Source: a virus
Lineage: Duplodnaviria; Heunggongvirae; Uroviricota; Caudoviricetes
Virus record (IMG/VR): IMGVR_UViG_2534681764_000020
Span: 1 to 4,324 of that record
DNA length: 4,324 bases
Strand: one strand, 5' to 3'
Numbering within the stretch: position 1 is the first letter of the stretch; every line of letters begins with the position of its first letter. Below, piece after piece: positions 1 to 4,324 of this stretch. Below the pieces are notes generated by a model. That model was not told the DNA's origin and searched no databases. It worked only from the letters and a program-made list of their open reading frames with translations. The translations under genes were made by a program, and so were the position numbers.

Positions 1-573
1 ATGTTTTGCGAAGAAAAAGTAGCTCAAATGGCTGCATACCTACTTCTTAAGCGAGGTGGGCGCATGGCATATCTGAAATTGATGAAGTTGCTCTATCTGT
101 CTAACCGCCAGTCGATTTTGAAGCATGGCAGGATGATCGGCGAAGATAGCCTTTACTCTATGAAATTTGGACCAGTCATGTCGAATACGCTGAACTTGAT
201 TCGCGGTAAGGCTGAAGGCATTGGTGACTACTGGTACAACTTGATAGAGACGAACGGGCATAATGTATCGTTGCGTTCAGATCCGAGGGAAATGGATGCA
301 GACGAGGTCTTTGATGAATTGAGTCGTGCAGATATCCGGATTTTAGATGAAATCTATTCTCGGTATGGGCATATGAACCGATTTGATCTCGCAAATATGA
401 CGCATTTAGAAAGCGTTTGTCCAGAGTGGCACGATCCTGGCAATTCTCGTAAGCCTATAGACCTGAAAGAAATGCTGATCAGTGAGGGTAAAAGCGAGGA
501 TGAGGCTAATCGCATAATTGGCAAAATGGAAGAATCTCAGAAACTTAAGGAATTTTCTTTGCAATTATCATGA
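1..573 (+). CDS. Panacea-domain (DUF4065) protein, PanA/SocA/GepA-like putative antitoxin; N-terminus may extend beyond the window
   Basis: The 190-aa ORF contains the segment LKLMKLLYL...GEDSLYSMKFGPVMSNTLNLIRG, which matches my recollection of the conserved Panacea core (LKLQKLLY...W.YGPV). Its stop codon overlaps the start of the next ORF (ATGA at 570-573). The ATG at position 1 coincides with the window edge, so the true start is uncertain. Confidence 0.72.
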   Translation: MFCEEKVAQMAAYLLLKRGGRMAYLKLMKLLYLSNRQSILKHGRMIGEDSLYSMKFGPVMSNTLNLIRGKAEGIGDYWYNLIETNGHNVSLRSDPREMDADEVFDELSRADIRILDEIYSRYGHMNRFDLANMTHLESVCPEWHDPGNSRKPIDLKEMLISEGKSEDEANRIIGKMEESQKLKEFSLQLS

Positions 574-989
574 CGGATTATCAGCCATACAGGAAAGGAA
601 CTGTGCTTGCCCCAACTGGGCCATGCAATCATCTTCATGTGATTTGTAATGATCCTGTTTATTACCCCGTTAACGATTGTTATTGTGTTTTAGTTGTTAA
701 TATTTCTAGTATCAAGGATGGTGTCCCCCACGATCCGTCTTGCGTCTTGAATTCTGGTGATCATCGCTTTATCAAGCATCCAAGTTATGTTGTTTACGCT
801 GAAGCTATAATTTGGCGAGTGGATAACATGGTTAGAAAGCAGCGATCGGGTGAGATTTCTGTTCATGATGATATGCCAGAAGCTACATTCAATAGAATTC
901 TGGACGGTTTTGATATCTCTGATGAAGTTACGCCAAAGAACCTTAAATTTAAAAATAAATATTGCGTATCATCTATTGATGATGAGTAA
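570..989 (+). CDS. hypothetical protein, candidate cognate toxin/effector of the Panacea-domain protein; fold unrecognised
   Basis: 139-aa ORF whose ATG overlaps the upstream stop by 4 bp (ATGA), suggesting translational coupling. There is no nearby Shine-Dalgarno sequence (AAGGAA lies about 18 nt upstream). The N-terminal half is Cys/His-rich (CNHLHVIC, CYC, SC...DH). The DNA looks AT-rich relative to the neighbouring operon. No family recognised from memory. Confidence 0.55.
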   Translation: MTDYQPYRKGTVLAPTGPCNHLHVICNDPVYYPVNDCYCVLVVNISSIKDGVPHDPSCVLNSGDHRFIKHPSYVVYAEAIIWRVDNMVRKQRSGEISVHDDMPEATFNRILDGFDISDEVTPKNLKFKNKYCVSSIDDE

Positions 990-1017
990 ACAACAGGAAT
1001 TGTTTCGGTATAACTTC

Positions 1018-1022
1018 AGGAG
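1018..1022 (+). promoter_or_regulatory. Shine-Dalgarno (AGGAG) for the 57-aa ORF
   Basis: AGGAG lies 6 nt upstream of the ATG at 1029. Confidence 0.6.
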
Positions 1023-1028
1023 TTTTCT

Positions 1029-1202
1029 ATGGAAGATCAAAAAGCAACCAAGCCACAGGTTAAGTTCGACACAATGAAAGCATTCGCAGGTATGGGTGCT
1101 GCTGTTGAAGTTCTGATGAAGGCTGCTCCTAATGCGTTCACTCACGCTACTGTCTCTGGTAAAGAGCAGCAGGGTAAGCTTCGTCGTCGCAAAGCAGCAT
1201 GA
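1029..1202 (+). CDS. small hypothetical protein (57 aa), not in the supplied ORF track
   Basis: Manual translation gives MEDQKATKPQVKFDTMKAFAGMGAAVEVLMKAAPNAFTHATVSGKEQQGKLRRRKAA, ending at TGA 1200-1202. It has a good RBS and is followed within 20 nt by a strong intrinsic terminator. Codon choice (GGT, GCT, CGT, GTT, TTC, CTG, AAA) resembles highly expressed enterobacterial genes. There is a hydrophobic/amphipathic core and a basic C-terminus. Confidence 0.5.
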   Translation: MEDQKATKPQVKFDTMKAFAGMGAAVEVLMKAAPNAFTHATVSGKEQQGKLRRRKAA

Positions 1203-1221
1203 TCATAGCTGGTGCTTTTTG

Positions 1222-1250
1222 AAAACCCGCCTTTAGGCGGGTTTTTTATT
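1222..1250. terminator. Rho-independent terminator at a convergent gene junction, probably bidirectional
   Basis: Perfect 10-bp inverted repeat AAAACCCGCC / GGCGGGTTTT with a 4-nt loop (TTTA), followed by TTTTTTATTT on the plus strand. It lies immediately 3' of both the plus-strand 57-aa ORF and the minus-strand gene ending at 1250. On the minus strand the trailing U-run is weaker (GGGUUUUC then A-rich). Confidence 0.82.
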
Positions 1251-1531
1251 TAGTGATGTTCTTTGCCCTTCTGTTTGCTTGTTCTGACCTGTTCCCACTC
1301 GATACGTCCTTCTTCTCGTCTTTTGTCTATGTATTCCGCAAGATCCTGAATATTGATGCAACGTTTTGCTTTTTGTGATGTGCCGATGCGATATGTTGGA
1401 ACGGGCAACTTACAAGCGTTTGCTTTTGCTTCTGCCGTGGATGGACTCATACCAAAGTACTTTTGGCTAACTGCTGAGAGTTCAATGTTTGGGGTATTGA
1501 ATTCAGCCATCAGTAAAAACAAGGTGTTCAT
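1250..1531 (-). CDS. PrtN/excisionase-like small DNA-binding protein (putative phage Xis or regulator)
   Basis: The ORF track gives 1250..1558, but that start is GTG with no RBS. The in-frame ATG at 1531 is preceded by GGAG with a 6-nt spacer and gives 93 aa. The segment IELSAVSQKYFGMSPSTAEAKANACKLPVPTYRIGTSQKAKRCINIQDLAEYIDKRREEG resembles PrtN/AlpA-type winged-helix proteins as I recall them. It is the last gene of the operon. Starts at 1543 or 1510 remain possible. Confidence 0.5.
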   Translation of the reverse strand: MNTLFLLMAEFNTPNIELSAVSQKYFGMSPSTAEAKANACKLPVPTYRIGTSQKAKRCINIQDLAEYIDKRREEGRIEWEQVRTSKQKGKEHH

Positions 1532-1567
1532 AATTTTCTCCATCAAAACCGGCTGCACCCGGGAAAA

Positions 1568-2140
1568 TCATAATTCTGTGCTGGTGGCAGGAATTAATTT
1601 CTGCCAGATAGCGGAAACATATTTTGCCTGATGACGGGCATCAGCCCGGGCGTTGTGCCGTTCGCCATCGAAAGGCATGTCCATTTTGGGGTCGAATCCG
1701 ATGGAACGCCCAAGCGTAACGATCGTGCGTACATCGTGGTCATTCCAGTATGCCCACGGGCAGATTTGTCCTGCTCGCTCATAAGCTCCACGTAAAATTA
1801 CGTTGTCGAAGGTGGCCCCGTTACCCCAGACTTTTAAATATTTCGTATTGTCTGCGTGCCGGTTAATGAAATGATTTAGTTCTGAGAGAGCATCGCTGAT
1901 CGACAAAGTATCATCAATGCAGATTGCAGCTCGTGCTTCAGGGCTTTGTTTCAACCACCACAGGATGGTATCGCCGTCAGGTGTAGCTCCTTGCTTCATA
2001 GCACTGTCTAGGCTGACAACCGCATAGAATTCTTGTCCGATGTCTCCGGTTTCGGGGGTGAAGAACACTGCGCCAATAGAAACGATCGGCGCATCCTTAT
2101 TTTTCCCCATCGTCTCAAGGTCGATCATTAAGTTGTTCAT
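1568..2140 (-). CDS. DEDDh-family (DnaQ-like) 3'-5' exonuclease, phage-type
   Basis: Motifs read directly from the translation: Exo I MIDLETMG (D, E), Exo II WGNGATFDN (D), Exo III H-NARADA (H...D). The track ORF (1568..2224) is over-extended: the ATG at 2140 is preceded by AGGAGGTG and overlaps the upstream stop as TGATG, giving 190 aa. Confidence 0.85.
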   Translation of the reverse strand: MNNLMIDLETMGKNKDAPIVSIGAVFFTPETGDIGQEFYAVVSLDSAMKQGATPDGDTILWWLKQSPEARAAICIDDTLSISDALSELNHFINRHADNTKYLKVWGNGATFDNVILRGAYERAGQICPWAYWNDHDVRTIVTLGRSIGFDPKMDMPFDGERHNARADARHQAKYVSAIWQKLIPATSTEL

Positions 2141-2421
2141 CACTTCACCTCCTGCGGCGGTTCTTGTATTGGCATCGACTGAGCTATATATAGCGGCTGA
2201 ACATACCAGCCCTTTGATAACCAACTGTCAGCAACGTTTTTACTTCTGGTTATTGCTGGAATACCCAAGCCATTGTCTGAATGCAGCCATGCCACCGGTT
2301 CTGCTTCCAGCGAGGCTAACGCTATTTCATAAGCTCGGCGCTCAATATTGTCTCGCACGTCCAAGCTGCCTATGCGCTCTTTGATTTCTTTAATCAGTTC
2401 TTTGTCGGTAAAAGTGGTCAT
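2140..2421 (-). CDS. hypothetical phage protein (93 aa)
   Basis: ORF with an AAGGAG RBS 6 nt upstream of the ATG at 2421. Its stop overlaps the exonuclease start. No family assigned confidently; contains EPVAW and PLY motifs of the sort seen in prophage proteins of unknown function. Confidence 0.6.
   Translation of the reverse strand: MTTFTDKELIKEIKERIGSLDVRDNIERRAYEIALASLEAEPVAWLHSDNGLGIPAITRSKNVADSWLSKGWYVQPLYIAQSMPIQEPPQEVK
2146..2153 (-). promoter_or_regulatory. Shine-Dalgarno (AGGAGGTG) for the exonuclease gene
   Basis: Reverse complement of 2146-2153 is AGGAGGTG, 5 nt upstream of the ATG at 2140 (minus strand). Confidence 0.65.
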
Positions 2422-2431
2422 GTGTTACTCC

Positions 2432-2695
2432 TTAACCCGCAGTGCTTTCAACTGACGAGGGGAACAAAATCTTTTCATCAAATCCGGCATTCATATCATG
2501 GACAGCAACACACCAATCCATTGACGAACGATTATCAAGAGCCTCCATGATTTCATCCATGCGGCGTAGGTCATACAGGTAAATATTTTTATCGCCAATG
2601 GTGTAAAAACCAATTTTTTTCGGTGATGGACAGCGATCAATAACGTCCTGTAATTCGTTCAACCATGCCTGTTCTTTTTTTGTCAAAGTTGCCAT
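2432..2695 (-). CDS. hypothetical phage protein (88 aa)
   Basis: Trimmed from track ORF 2432..2785 to the internal ATG at 2695 (MATLTKKEQAWLNEL...), which sits 1 nt after the upstream gene's stop and has an AAGGA motif upstream. The longer N-terminal extension would overlap the membrane-protein ORF. Confidence 0.5.
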   Translation of the reverse strand: MATLTKKEQAWLNELQDVIDRCPSPKKIGFYTIGDKNIYLYDLRRMDEIMEALDNRSSMDWCVAVHDMNAGFDEKILFPSSVESTAG

Positions 2696-2696
2696 A

Positions 2697-2915
2697 TCAG
2701 TTTTCCTTATACGGATTAATTTTATTGTGCAGTGTGTTGAACGACGCCCATACCACGTCGTTATACAATTCAATAACTGGCTCAATTATTTTCCCGATTG
2801 CCCAGACAAAAATTAGCGGGGATATCGGTATCATCAACACGATAAACAGAATGAGAAACAGGAATTCTGTCGTTCTACTCTTTCGCGGATATTCTTTTCT
2901 GAATAATGTCGGCAC
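2697..2915 (-). CDS. small single-pass membrane protein (72 aa), probable GTG start
   Basis: A basic N-terminus (RKEYPRKSRTTE) is followed by a roughly 24-residue hydrophobic segment (FLFLILFIVLMIPISPLIFVWAIG), consistent with an N-in transmembrane helix. The start codon at 2915..2913 is GTG, preceded by GGAGAG. AT-rich. There is no in-frame ATG that would keep the TM segment. Confidence 0.5.
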   Translation of the reverse strand: MPTLFRKEYPRKSRTTEFLFLILFIVLMIPISPLIFVWAIGKIIEPVIELYNDVVWASFNTLHNKINPYKEN

Positions 2916-2916
2916 A

Positions 2917-3249
2917 TCACTCTCCTTTGATGCGAATGCCAGCGACGCGTAGTGCGTGTTCTAAGTCAATCAGGCAAAGCCAACTGCCATTTTCTTTAGG
3001 TATCATGACATGTCGCTTATCAGCATTTATTGGGTGCCCATATCGAAGGTCGTAGCGAGTCGGTAATTGAACTTCCCTCGCTTCCAGTTCTGTAATGCGT
3101 TTGTTTTTAGCTTCTAGTTCATCCAGCAGCGCCAGCACAACCTGCGGTGTGACTTTCATACGAAATGCCAGCAATTTTTGTGGTGTGGCTACTATTTTTA
3201 TTGCTTCTGCCGCCTCACGCAGTGCCTGATAGTTAATTTTGGTTGTCAT
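2917..3249 (-). CDS. Ead/Ea22-like family phage protein
   Basis: 110 aa; N-terminal INYQALREAAEA and the central VLALLDELEAKNKRITELEAR coiled-coil segment match my recollection of Ead/Ea22-like prophage proteins. The start overlaps the upstream stop as ATGA, with a GAGGTG RBS. Confidence 0.6.
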   Translation of the reverse strand: MTTKINYQALREAAEAIKIVATPQKLLAFRMKVTPQVVLALLDELEAKNKRITELEAREVQLPTRYDLRYGHPINADKRHVMIPKENGSWLCLIDLEHALRVAGIRIKGE

Positions 3250-4124
3250 GCCACCACCTCTTCGAATTTCAACTCCAATTGATCACCCCAGATTTCACAT
3301 GACTCTGAACACGAGCCGGTATCGAATCGCCTGGCTTGCACCATCGCCTGATACAAATTTCTGTAGTCGCTGTCGGCATACATTCTGGCAATCCCGTCAA
3401 GACTCAGATGACCACGGTACATAACGTCTTTATCTGTCTTTCGGTGACCATCCCGGACGTGTTTACCTGTAACCAGCTCATTAAAAACTCTCATCAGACC
3501 AGGTTCGTCTTTACATGCAAGCCCCAGCTTTTGCGTGGACTTTTTGATGCAGAAAACACAGTTCCCGAGGTGCTCCGGGATTTGCAAATCAAAAGGTTGT
3601 TTATGCCACCACCGGATAACATCCGACTTATCAAAATCAGATAGCTCGGCAAGATACCGGACGCCTGATTTCGGTTTCAGCCTACGAGGTTCGTCTGCAC
3701 GAATACCCAGCCATGTGATGTAATTCCCTCGTCCGAAATGGTCATCGCAGTATTTTGTGAAGGGGGTGAGTTTTAATCTGTCAGTGCAGAACGCGCCGCC
3801 GATGTATGGCGTGCCATATTTTTTTACCATGTCCATAAACGGTTTAAGCACCGGCATTCGCGTCTGAATATCCTTTGGTTCCCATTCCGTATAACCATTT
3901 GGCTGCCCAAGCTCTGGATTTATATCGACCTGCAACACAGTTAGCGGTATGCCCCAGAACTTCACAACCTCCCGAATAAAGCGGTATGTCAGCGGATGTT
4001 CGCAACCGGTATCCATAAAGATGTAGCAGACGTTATTACCAGCCTTTCTTTGTTCTTCCATCAGGTGAACAAGATATGCAGATGTTCTCCCGCCAGAAAA
4101 ACTAACTACATGAGTTATGCACAT
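3246..4124 (-). CDS. phosphoadenosine phosphosulfate (PAPS) reductase family protein, PP-loop ATP pyrophosphatase superfamily
   Basis: 292 aa; an N-terminal PP-loop-like motif VVSFSGGRTS (a variant of SGGxDS), a conserved D-T-G segment and a C-terminal CxxC (CVFC). Its position in a prophage early operon next to an Ea22-like gene is common in enterobacterial prophages (from memory). Confidence 0.8.
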   Translation of the reverse strand: MCITHVVSFSGGRTSAYLVHLMEEQRKAGNNVCYIFMDTGCEHPLTYRFIREVVKFWGIPLTVLQVDINPELGQPNGYTEWEPKDIQTRMPVLKPFMDMVKKYGTPYIGGAFCTDRLKLTPFTKYCDDHFGRGNYITWLGIRADEPRRLKPKSGVRYLAELSDFDKSDVIRWWHKQPFDLQIPEHLGNCVFCIKKSTQKLGLACKDEPGLMRVFNELVTGKHVRDGHRKTDKDVMYRGHLSLDGIARMYADSDYRNLYQAMVQARRFDTGSCSESCEIWGDQLELKFEEVVA

Positions 4125-4321
4125 TTGCGTAATTCCGATAACTCGTTGAAGCGTGCCATAAACATCCCGTAGGCATGGCCCGGTGCCAGTGGAATCACGT
4201 TGAACATCTCTGTTGCCGGGATGCCTTCCAGTACAGGCCAGAAAGAGCCATCATCAAGCCCGAGATCGCGGCGTTCGGTTGCCAGCATGATGAGATCGGC
4301 ATATTTCACGGGTGTACTCAT
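4115..4321 (-). CDS. hypothetical protein (68 aa or longer), start possibly beyond the window edge
   Basis: The ORF overlaps the PAPS-reductase start by 10 nt. The reading frame is still open at the window boundary (codon 4322-4324 is sense), so the ATG at 4321 may be internal. Confidence 0.45.
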   Translation of the reverse strand: MSTPVKYADLIMLATERRDLGLDDGSFWPVLEGIPATEMFNVIPLAPGHAYGMFMARFNELSELRKCA

Positions 4322-4324
4322 AAC

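Follow-up and report, generated by a model that had tools for sequence, protein, structure and literature searches.

In the known type II toxin-antitoxin systems with a GNAT toxin, namely TacAT, AtaRT and KacAT, the antitoxin is a protein of about 90 amino acids (aa) that has an RHH/DUF1778 domain and is encoded upstream of the toxin. The PanAT systems combine a Panacea-domain antitoxin with diverse toxins, and some PanAT loci carry accessory third genes, which are sporadic and probably stand outside neutralization (Kurata et al. 2022, PMC8832971). We analyzed a stretch of 4,324 nucleotides (nt) from a Caudoviricetes virus (IMG/VR record IMGVR_UViG_2534681764_000020, positions 1 to 4,324; hereafter the window), which is the left end of a mEp460/SKA5-type lambdoid prophage of Escherichia coli. 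Here, a PanA-type antitoxin gene and an overlapping toxin-sized open reading frame (ORF) are followed by a small ORF of 57 aa, referred to as ORF57, whose position recalls the sporadic third genes reported at some PanAT loci (PMC8832971). However, ORF57 does not follow this cassette across diverged homologs and is unconstrained beside it. As described below, it belongs with a GNAT-fold gene that the cassette has displaced.

The first-pass annotation, made from the letters of the window, listed ORF57 as unannotated, but it is already recorded as WP_000390072.1 in RefSeq (100% identity at the DNA level), as gp24 of phage mEp460 (98% protein identity) and as PHROG 2741, whose profile aligns residues 1-57 with positions 1-57 of 57 (E = 8.4e-36). 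All three records are hypothetical proteins of unknown function that name neither a partner nor a genomic context, and a full-text literature search on the accessions and the PHROG identifier returned no paper. The suspicion that ORF57 is a real protein-coding gene is borne out by the conservation of its frame: the 18 nucleotide alleles found in 90 loci are all 174 nt long and have no frameshift or stop, the ratio of nonsynonymous to synonymous substitution rates (dN/dS) against five other genera is 0.12-0.22, and the variable columns fall on codon positions 1, 2 and 3 in the numbers 13, 12 and 30, that is, with an excess at the third position. A search of 5.8 billion proteins gave 48 homolog clusters, most of them exactly 57 aa long, which span Escherichia, Salmonella, Enterobacter, Atlantibacter, Franconibacter, Cronobacter and Hafnia, and whose alignment has a near-invariant core (FDTxKAFAGMGAAVEVLMKAAPNAF) and variable ends. 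Using a profile search against 1.8 billion representatives, we found a small family of 15 representatives, in which the full-length small-protein members have 53-61 aa and share the pattern F-D/E-T, an M/I-G-x-A-x-D/E-x-L-x-K-A-x-P helix, Q-G-K/R, a basic stretch and a C-terminal Ala-Ala. This last feature is present in 21 of the 24 aligned close members and in all distant ones, and members with identities down to ~30-40% have kept the peptide motif and not the nucleotide sequence. ORF57 is a conserved protein-coding prophage gene.

The protein consists of a variable basic N-terminus, the FDT motif, a helix and a disordered basic tail ending in KAA; accordingly, its AlphaFold model has a single helix at residues 15-37 between disordered tails, at a modest confidence (predicted local distance difference test score, pLDDT, 66). 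It has a net charge of +6 and 8 lysines. The earlier suggestion of a membrane-active peptide does not agree with its hydropathy, since the best 19-residue Kyte-Doolittle window reaches 1.0, below the usual transmembrane cutoff of 1.6. We likewise rejected a type I toxin or small membrane peptide on account of this value, the net charge and the charged residues E27 and K31 within the helix. ORF57 has no match at E <= 1 in Pfam or NCBIfam, and none of ORF57, the GNAT protein, PanA and the toxin matches the PADLOC-DB 2.0 defense profiles at E <= 1. A search of PDB sequences with the family profile found nothing, and neither did Foldseek with the ORF57 model, for which one helix is an uninformative query. 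We also rejected an antisense ORF of 58 codons (969-1145, minus strand), which is open in all E. coli alleles, has stops in 3 of 5 other genera and probably exists only as a consequence of the Ala/Gly-rich codon composition. As an instance of the under-annotation of small ORFs, the source's gene caller missed an ORF57-family gene at ~3300-3470 of locus L264, which is intact (MKDHKASTSQEKYDTTKAFAEMGAAVEILMKAAP...KAA) and is followed by its terminator.

In the other lineages examined, except for a Cronobacter variant, ORF57 is located 93-265 nt downstream of a gene for a GNAT-fold protein of ~178 aa (172-184 aa). These lineages include mEp460 (where the partner is gp23), Pseudescherichia, Franconibacter, Hafnia, Edwardsiella, Photorhabdus, Brenneria, an Enterobacteriaceae isolate and metagenomic relatives, and in some of them the small proteins are barely detectable as homologs of ORF57. 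Starting from the GNAT gene, an ORF57-family ORF is found downstream in 80 of 80 viral loci and in 6 of 6 further GNAT loci. The GNAT-fold gene is the constant partner of ORF57. Its protein has no match in Pfam, NCBIfam or PADLOC; however, an AlphaFold model (pLDDT 82) yielded 225 PDB matches with E<1e-3, and the 50 of them that were listed are all GNAT-fold acetyltransferases or closely related proteins. The structural matches include AtaT, TacT3, KacT, RimI, Naa50, SpeG and Gcn5. It was this fold search that gave the identity of the family, as its sequence-profile matches in the PDB (HIV gp41) were spurious coiled coils. The GNAT gene and ORF57 constitute a mobile two-gene prophage module, composed of a promoter, the GNAT gene, a leader, ORF57 and a terminator. 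Similar to prophage morons, the unit ends in its own terminator and occupies at least five different slots, namely, between attP and the excisionase gene xis, between the Q antiterminator and holin genes, among the tail genes, beside cI, and in chromosomal islets, one of which adjoins cas3; moron, however, is a positional category that implies no mechanism.

The leader between the GNAT gene and ORF57 (in mEp460, between gp23 and gp24; L002 3818-4013) is conserved, has a length of ~145-200 nt and contains four hairpins, the last of which abuts the Shine-Dalgarno sequence of ORF57: TTACC-N5-GGTAA, CCAATCG-loop-CGATTGG, a covarying third stem and GAGAC-N7-11-GTCTC. We scored three of the four hairpins in 16 diverse sequences, as the fourth is not consistently alignable, and found 93% of the cells paired compared with 17-43% in slid controls, the structure having been derived from the same alignment on which it was scored. 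In 19 cells both sides are changed, a number reached in none of 500 shuffles. The changes from C-G to U-G and from A-U to G-U are sensible only as plus-strand RNA, and no Rfam family matches the leader.

Cronobacter provides a second context without the GNAT gene (L096-L098, 3667-4156). Here, the gene preceding the ORF57 homolog codes for an unrelated protein of 85 aa; the homolog itself is 51 aa long and has no KAA at its C-terminus, and its sister alleles differ in their C-termini (P0035, P0046). Both genes are encoded on the opposite strand and are flanked by the genes for portal and terminase. In Hafnia prophages (L090-L092, ~2150-3109), a RelA/SpoT-domain gene, possibly encoding a toxic alarmone synthetase, is located directly upstream of GNAT-ORF57 in the Q antiterminator/holin slot, which seems to gather toxin-like cargo.

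Both the GNAT gene and the structured leader are missing from the window. The megablast match of the window to mEp460 starts at query position 117, corresponding to position 1016 and thus ~13 nt before the ATG of ORF57, and a side-by-side comparison of the upstream sequences indicates that cassette-free E. coli loci diverge from the window at the same break (~1016-1017). To the left of the cargo, the cassette-type and GNAT-type loci become similar again at the attP-arm sequence. With the limits of homology at the Shine-Dalgarno sequence on one side and the attP arm on the other, the whole cargo segment has therefore been exchanged: the GNAT partner was replaced by PanAT in the lineage of the window. 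At its left limit, the exchanged segment is bounded by repeated TGGGAACC motifs, which are probably integrase arm sites, and at its right limit by the Shine-Dalgarno sequence of ORF57.

We compared selection on ORF57 in the two contexts by counting variants in 102 cassette-type loci (101 for the toxin) among the IMG/VR prophage calls. Of the 18 variants in ORF57, 15 are nonsynonymous and 3 synonymous, giving a ratio of nonsynonymous to synonymous polymorphism (pN/pS) of 1.46, whereas the ratios in the same loci are 0.10 for PanA, 0.07 for the toxin, 0.16 for xis and 0.17 for the exonuclease gene exo. Thus, ORF57 differs from its neighbors (Fisher p = 1.3e-4), but not from the neutral expectation (binomial p = 0.78). 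The changes are scattered rather than clustered and include P34H and K50E at family-invariant positions and A57V at a position that is at least 90% conserved, and with 0.105 per nt, the variant density of ORF57 as a whole comes near that of the toxin gene next to it at synonymous sites (0.136). On the other hand, beside the GNAT gene within E. coli, ORF57 has 0 nonsynonymous and 4 synonymous changes, the same as the GNAT gene itself, and the two contexts differ (Fisher p = 0.005). Amino-acid constraint on ORF57 is undetectable in the cassette lineage. The intact allele is the commonest among the cassette-type loci, and in the protein database around a dozen alleles starting with MED, a marker of cassette-type copies of ORF57, are frameshifted, truncated or have an indel.

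The distribution of ORF57 is likewise separate from that of the cassette. Among 5426 complete E. coli genomes, ORF57 occurs in 562, the PanA-toxin cassette in 208 and both together in 205, while ORF57 occurs without the cassette in 357. Moreover, an ORF57 homolog is located downstream of 0 of 13 diverged PanA-toxin pairs (70-86% toxin identity). Since in locus L163 (1-744) a toxin homolog with 86% identity runs, after 63 nt, directly into convergent xis with no ORF57 in between, the attP-xis slot can exist without ORF57. The proposal that ORF57 is a third component, a regulator or a second antitoxin of the cassette is not supported, in view of these counts, of its pN/pS and of the GNAT-fold gene being its constant partner elsewhere. 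Judged from these genomic data, ORF57 is not a part of the PanA/PanT cassette, which would be an ordinary two-gene pair with a passenger.

What had been noticed about the expression signals of ORF57 largely stood. The AGGAG ribosome-binding site at 1018-1022 has a good spacing of 6 nt to the ATG, and its first base is polymorphic among the 102 cassette-type loci, being read as TGGAG in 73, AGGAG in 28 (including the window) and TGGTG in one. The high-expression codon usage was confirmed by a codon adaptation index (CAI) of 0.56, compared with 0.23-0.30 in nine neighboring genes, as calculated with the weights (w table) of Sharp & Li 1987; none of 5000 random synonymous recodings reaches this value (null mean 0.27, sd 0.05), and the orthologs of ORF57 have a CAI of 0.48-0.60. 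The terminator is indeed a strong hairpin, but not a dedicated one, as it folds on both strands and is common to ORF57 and xis. It has the form GAAAACCCGCC-TTTA-GGCGGGTTTTT, begins 18 nt past the ORF57 stop, and has an 11-bp stem including 6 GC pairs and a T6 tail, which places it within the definition of an intrinsic (Rho-independent) terminator. The 61 nt at 1196-1256 around it fold with -20.9 kcal/mol (z = -3.15) on the plus strand, the fold of the terminator on the minus strand has -16.2 kcal/mol (z = -5.4), and its distance to the xis stop is 4 nt. A terminator is found 3' of the ORF in 13 of 13 lineages compared and in 3 of 3 more with downstream sequence shown. In the run of PanA, toxin and ORF57, the first terminator is the one after ORF57, and the 39-nt gap between the toxin stop (989) and the ORF57 ATG has neither a sigma-70-like site nor a terminator-like site, in agreement with the earlier remark that no promoter separates the two; co-transcription with the upstream genes is thus plausible.

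Two observations concern the RNA around this terminator. The 3' untranslated region (3' UTR) at 1203-1220, catagctggtgctttttgaaaa, has hardly changed between E. coli and Pseudescherichia, despite a dS of 0.27-0.39 in the ORF and a freely variable terminator loop; an element for RNA stability or of the Hfq type may be located here. We do not claim a second hairpin, formed between the last codons (AAAGCAGCA) and the 3' UTR (TGGTGCTTT), which is present in the minimum-free-energy fold and is lost in distant lineages. An Rfam scan of the ORF57 locus gave at best 29-31 bits against a threshold of 55, with all matches centered on the terminator.

Based on these results, we propose that recombination in a dusA-integrated, mEp460-like E. 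coli lineage would have replaced the GNAT gene and the entire leader by the PanA/PanT cassette, the swapped segment having its ends at the attP arm and ~13 nt ahead of the ORF57 start codon. ORF57 would have retained its own Shine-Dalgarno core and its terminator, and therefore it is probably still transcribed in the window, now at the 3' end of the cassette mRNA, and probably also translated; deprived of its partner, however, it would now evolve without detectable amino-acid constraint. Hence, we regard ORF57 as, more likely than not, the stranded and probably still co-transcribed partner of the replaced GNAT gene. We infer that ORF57 requires the GNAT protein for its function. In the native module, large amounts of this helical protein would be translated, and it would probably be short-lived; it would bind to the GNAT enzyme and hold it in check, or depend on it in another way. 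Without the GNAT protein, ORF57 would have nothing to act on, and hence be functionless in the window.

A more specific interpretation, which we put forward only tentatively, is that the GNAT gene, the leader and ORF57 form an undescribed toxin-antitoxin or defense-type module of enterobacterial prophages, in which a small single-helix protein of 53-61 aa with a protease-tag-like C-terminus might neutralize a divergent GNAT, and the four-hairpin leader RNA would govern how well the mRNA of the small protein is translated or how stable it is. If this is true, the window would be a natural knockout, namely, an orphan antitoxin left after PanAT displaced the toxin. A neutralizing partner fits the observed asymmetry: ORF57 persists without the GNAT gene in two independent contexts, whereas the GNAT gene was never seen on its own. 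The strong ribosome-binding site, the high CAI and the RRRKAA tail would be consistent with a protein made in excess and turned over fast; ClpX recognizes C-terminal degrons that are ssrA-like (LAA) or MuA-like (RRKKAI), and the end of ORF57, ...RRRKAA-COOH, resembles these signals in sequence. As in TacAT, AtaRT and KacAT, the native partner has the GNAT fold, with AtaT, TacT3 and KacT among its structural matches, and the native module is a mobile, prophage-borne pair of genes whose small partner survives alone. However, ORF57 is a single helix without a Pfam domain and is encoded downstream of the GNAT gene, a structured leader of 93-265 nt separates the two genes, and the window itself has no GNAT gene. 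The native module, if it is a toxin-antitoxin pair, would accordingly stand outside the RHH/DUF1778 family in view of its missing domain, gene order and long spacer. A literature search for defense systems consisting of a GNAT and a small protein found nothing relevant.

Several points weigh against the stranded-partner reading and its antitoxin-like version. The GNAT partner is as close to harmless acetyltransferases (RimI, SpeG, Gcn5) as to GNAT toxins, and therefore its toxicity is hypothetical. The known GNAT toxins are paired with an upstream RHH (DUF1778) antitoxin, from which ORF57 differs; a high CAI is unusual in an antitoxin; and the pLDDT of ORF57 (66) is modest. The polymorphism counts are small (18 sites), come from loci with shared ancestry and are variant counts rather than a phylogenetic test, and a pN/pS above 1 could reflect adaptive change instead of lost constraint. 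Furthermore, there are 0 disrupted ORF57 alleles among the 102 cassette-type loci, and the allele in the window is intact, only K2E separating it from the GNAT-type protein. All steps of the argument rest on computation.

The main alternative to an antitoxin-like ORF57 is that it needs the GNAT protein as a substrate or cofactor, for example, as a Lys-rich peptide activated by acetylation, or as an effector to which the GNAT confers immunity. The strict pairing and the loss of constraint without the GNAT gene apply equally to this alternative, the best structural matches of the partner include acetyltransferases of peptides and N-termini (RimI, Naa50, a lasso-peptide acetyltransferase), and ORF57 has 8 lysines. 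However, no modification motif is known, an ORF57 that was toxic without GNAT immunity should not have its intact allele as the commonest one in cassette-type loci, and the asymmetry that the small ORF alone is tolerated while the GNAT gene never occurs alone suits an inhibitor better, so we consider a substrate or cofactor role rather unlikely, though deserving more weight than any of the explanations that follow. That ORF57 is an autonomous lysogenic-conversion or excision-control protein, independent of whichever gene lies upstream, is suggested by its being small, basic and, by codon usage, highly expressed, and in E. coli always convergent with xis, with the terminator in common; but in other phages the module is far from xis (near Q/holin, tail genes, cI or cas3), and in the cassette context the constraint on ORF57 is lost although the adjacent xis remains constrained, which makes such a role improbable.

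The reading of ORF57 as an accessory third gene of PanA/PanT, be it a regulator, a second antitoxin or a chaperone, draws on the short toxin-ORF57 gap with neither promoter nor terminator in it, on the 205 of 208 E. coli cassette copies that have ORF57 next to them, and on the accessory third genes known at some PanAT loci (PMC8832971). Yet a single insertion lineage explains this co-occurrence in E. coli, the accessory genes described are sporadic and probably not involved in neutralization (PMC8832971), ORF57 is found without the cassette in 357 genomes and is missing downstream of the 13 diverged cassettes, and beside the cassette its pN/pS is 1.46 against 0.07-0.10 for the cassette genes; we hold this reading to be very unlikely. 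We give equally little credence to diversifying or adaptive selection, rather than decay, after ORF57 joined the cassette. A pN/pS above 1 and the lack of disrupted alleles among the 102 loci are what it would predict, but the ratio is indistinguishable from neutral (p = 0.78), the changes at invariant or at least 90%-conserved sites (P34H, K50E, A57V) are scattered rather than clustered, and frameshifted MED-type alleles occur in the wider protein database. Least likely of all is that the locus acts mainly as RNA, either as a 3'-UTR-derived or dual-function small RNA or as a terminator pad, with the ORF being incidental. A U-rich stretch, a hairpin and a poly-U tail form an arrangement resembling an Hfq-binding module, and the near-invariance of the 3' UTR catagctggtgctttttgaaaa from E. 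coli to Pseudescherichia despite the dS of 0.27-0.39 would suit it; however, selection on ORF57 is purifying at the protein level with a third-position excess of variation, members of ~30-40% identity retain the peptide motif and not the nucleotide sequence, and no Rfam family reaches its threshold, the sub-threshold matches being driven by the terminator.

The features of the window around ORF57 are summarized in Table 1.

Table 1. Features at the left end of the prophage (feature, position in the window, strand, basis or remark)
PanA antitoxin gene (Panacea/SocA domain)	1..573	+	Pfam PF13274, E = 2.2e-19; RefSeq 'Panacea domain-containing protein'
Putative PanT toxin, 139 aa	570..989	+	ATGA overlap with PanA; PHROG 19071
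Cassette-specific spacer, ending at the recombination junction	990..1016	+	GNAT-type similarity begins at ~1016-1017
Shine-Dalgarno sequence AGGAG	1018..1022	+	6-nt spacer to ATG; GGAG core common to GNAT-type loci
ORF57, 57 aa, ATG start, TGA stop	1029..1202	+	PHROG 2741
Bidirectional intrinsic terminator	1221..1246	both	Common to ORF57 (+) and the convergent excisionase gene (-)
PrtN-family excisionase gene (xis)	1250..1531	-	Pfam PF11112, E = 6.5e-23; PHROG 1300 excisionase; RefSeq coordinates

Beyond xis, the minus strand carries exo and then other early-region genes. A candidate promoter, TTGACC-17-TAAACT, is seen upstream of PanA in the full locus. The putative PanT has no relative in Pfam, NCBIfam, PADLOC or the PDB sequences, PHROG 19071 being its only match, and a likeness to PemK/MazF was an impression by eye backed by no search, which we do not claim. 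Hundreds of E. coli chromosomes match the window at or near 100% identity; in strain WP4-S18-ESBL-09, a displaced 5' fragment of dusA is directly adjacent, with the window on the inner side of this fragment. This fragment (105 nt) is directed into the prophage towards the cargo genes (locus L001 4744-5102, L002 3030-3284), and from this orientation it is conceivable that host transcription could read through into the cargo from the dusA side.

These results correct the gene model of the window to a two-gene PanAT pair plus a passenger, and therefore deletion of ORF57 would not be expected to alter the phenotype of the cassette. They also indicate that the attP-xis slot of dusA-integrating lambdoid prophages exchanges its cargo by recombination up to a Shine-Dalgarno sequence. 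While ORF57 was already catalogued as a hypothetical protein, neither its link to the GNAT gene nor its stranded state is recorded in the literature and databases that we searched. The exchange amounts to a natural experiment, in which the same small gene is constrained beside one neighbor and unconstrained beside another, and this context-dependent constraint therefore ties an uncharacterized small-protein family to an uncharacterized GNAT family. The GNAT-ORF57 pair has a wide distribution among prophages of the Enterobacterales, where it occupies classic moron sites, and we therefore consider it a reasonable candidate for a so far undescribed toxin-antitoxin or defense module. The main interest beyond the window is accordingly this module of a GNAT, a leader and a small protein, for which the natural experiment indicates a mutual dependence of the two proteins.

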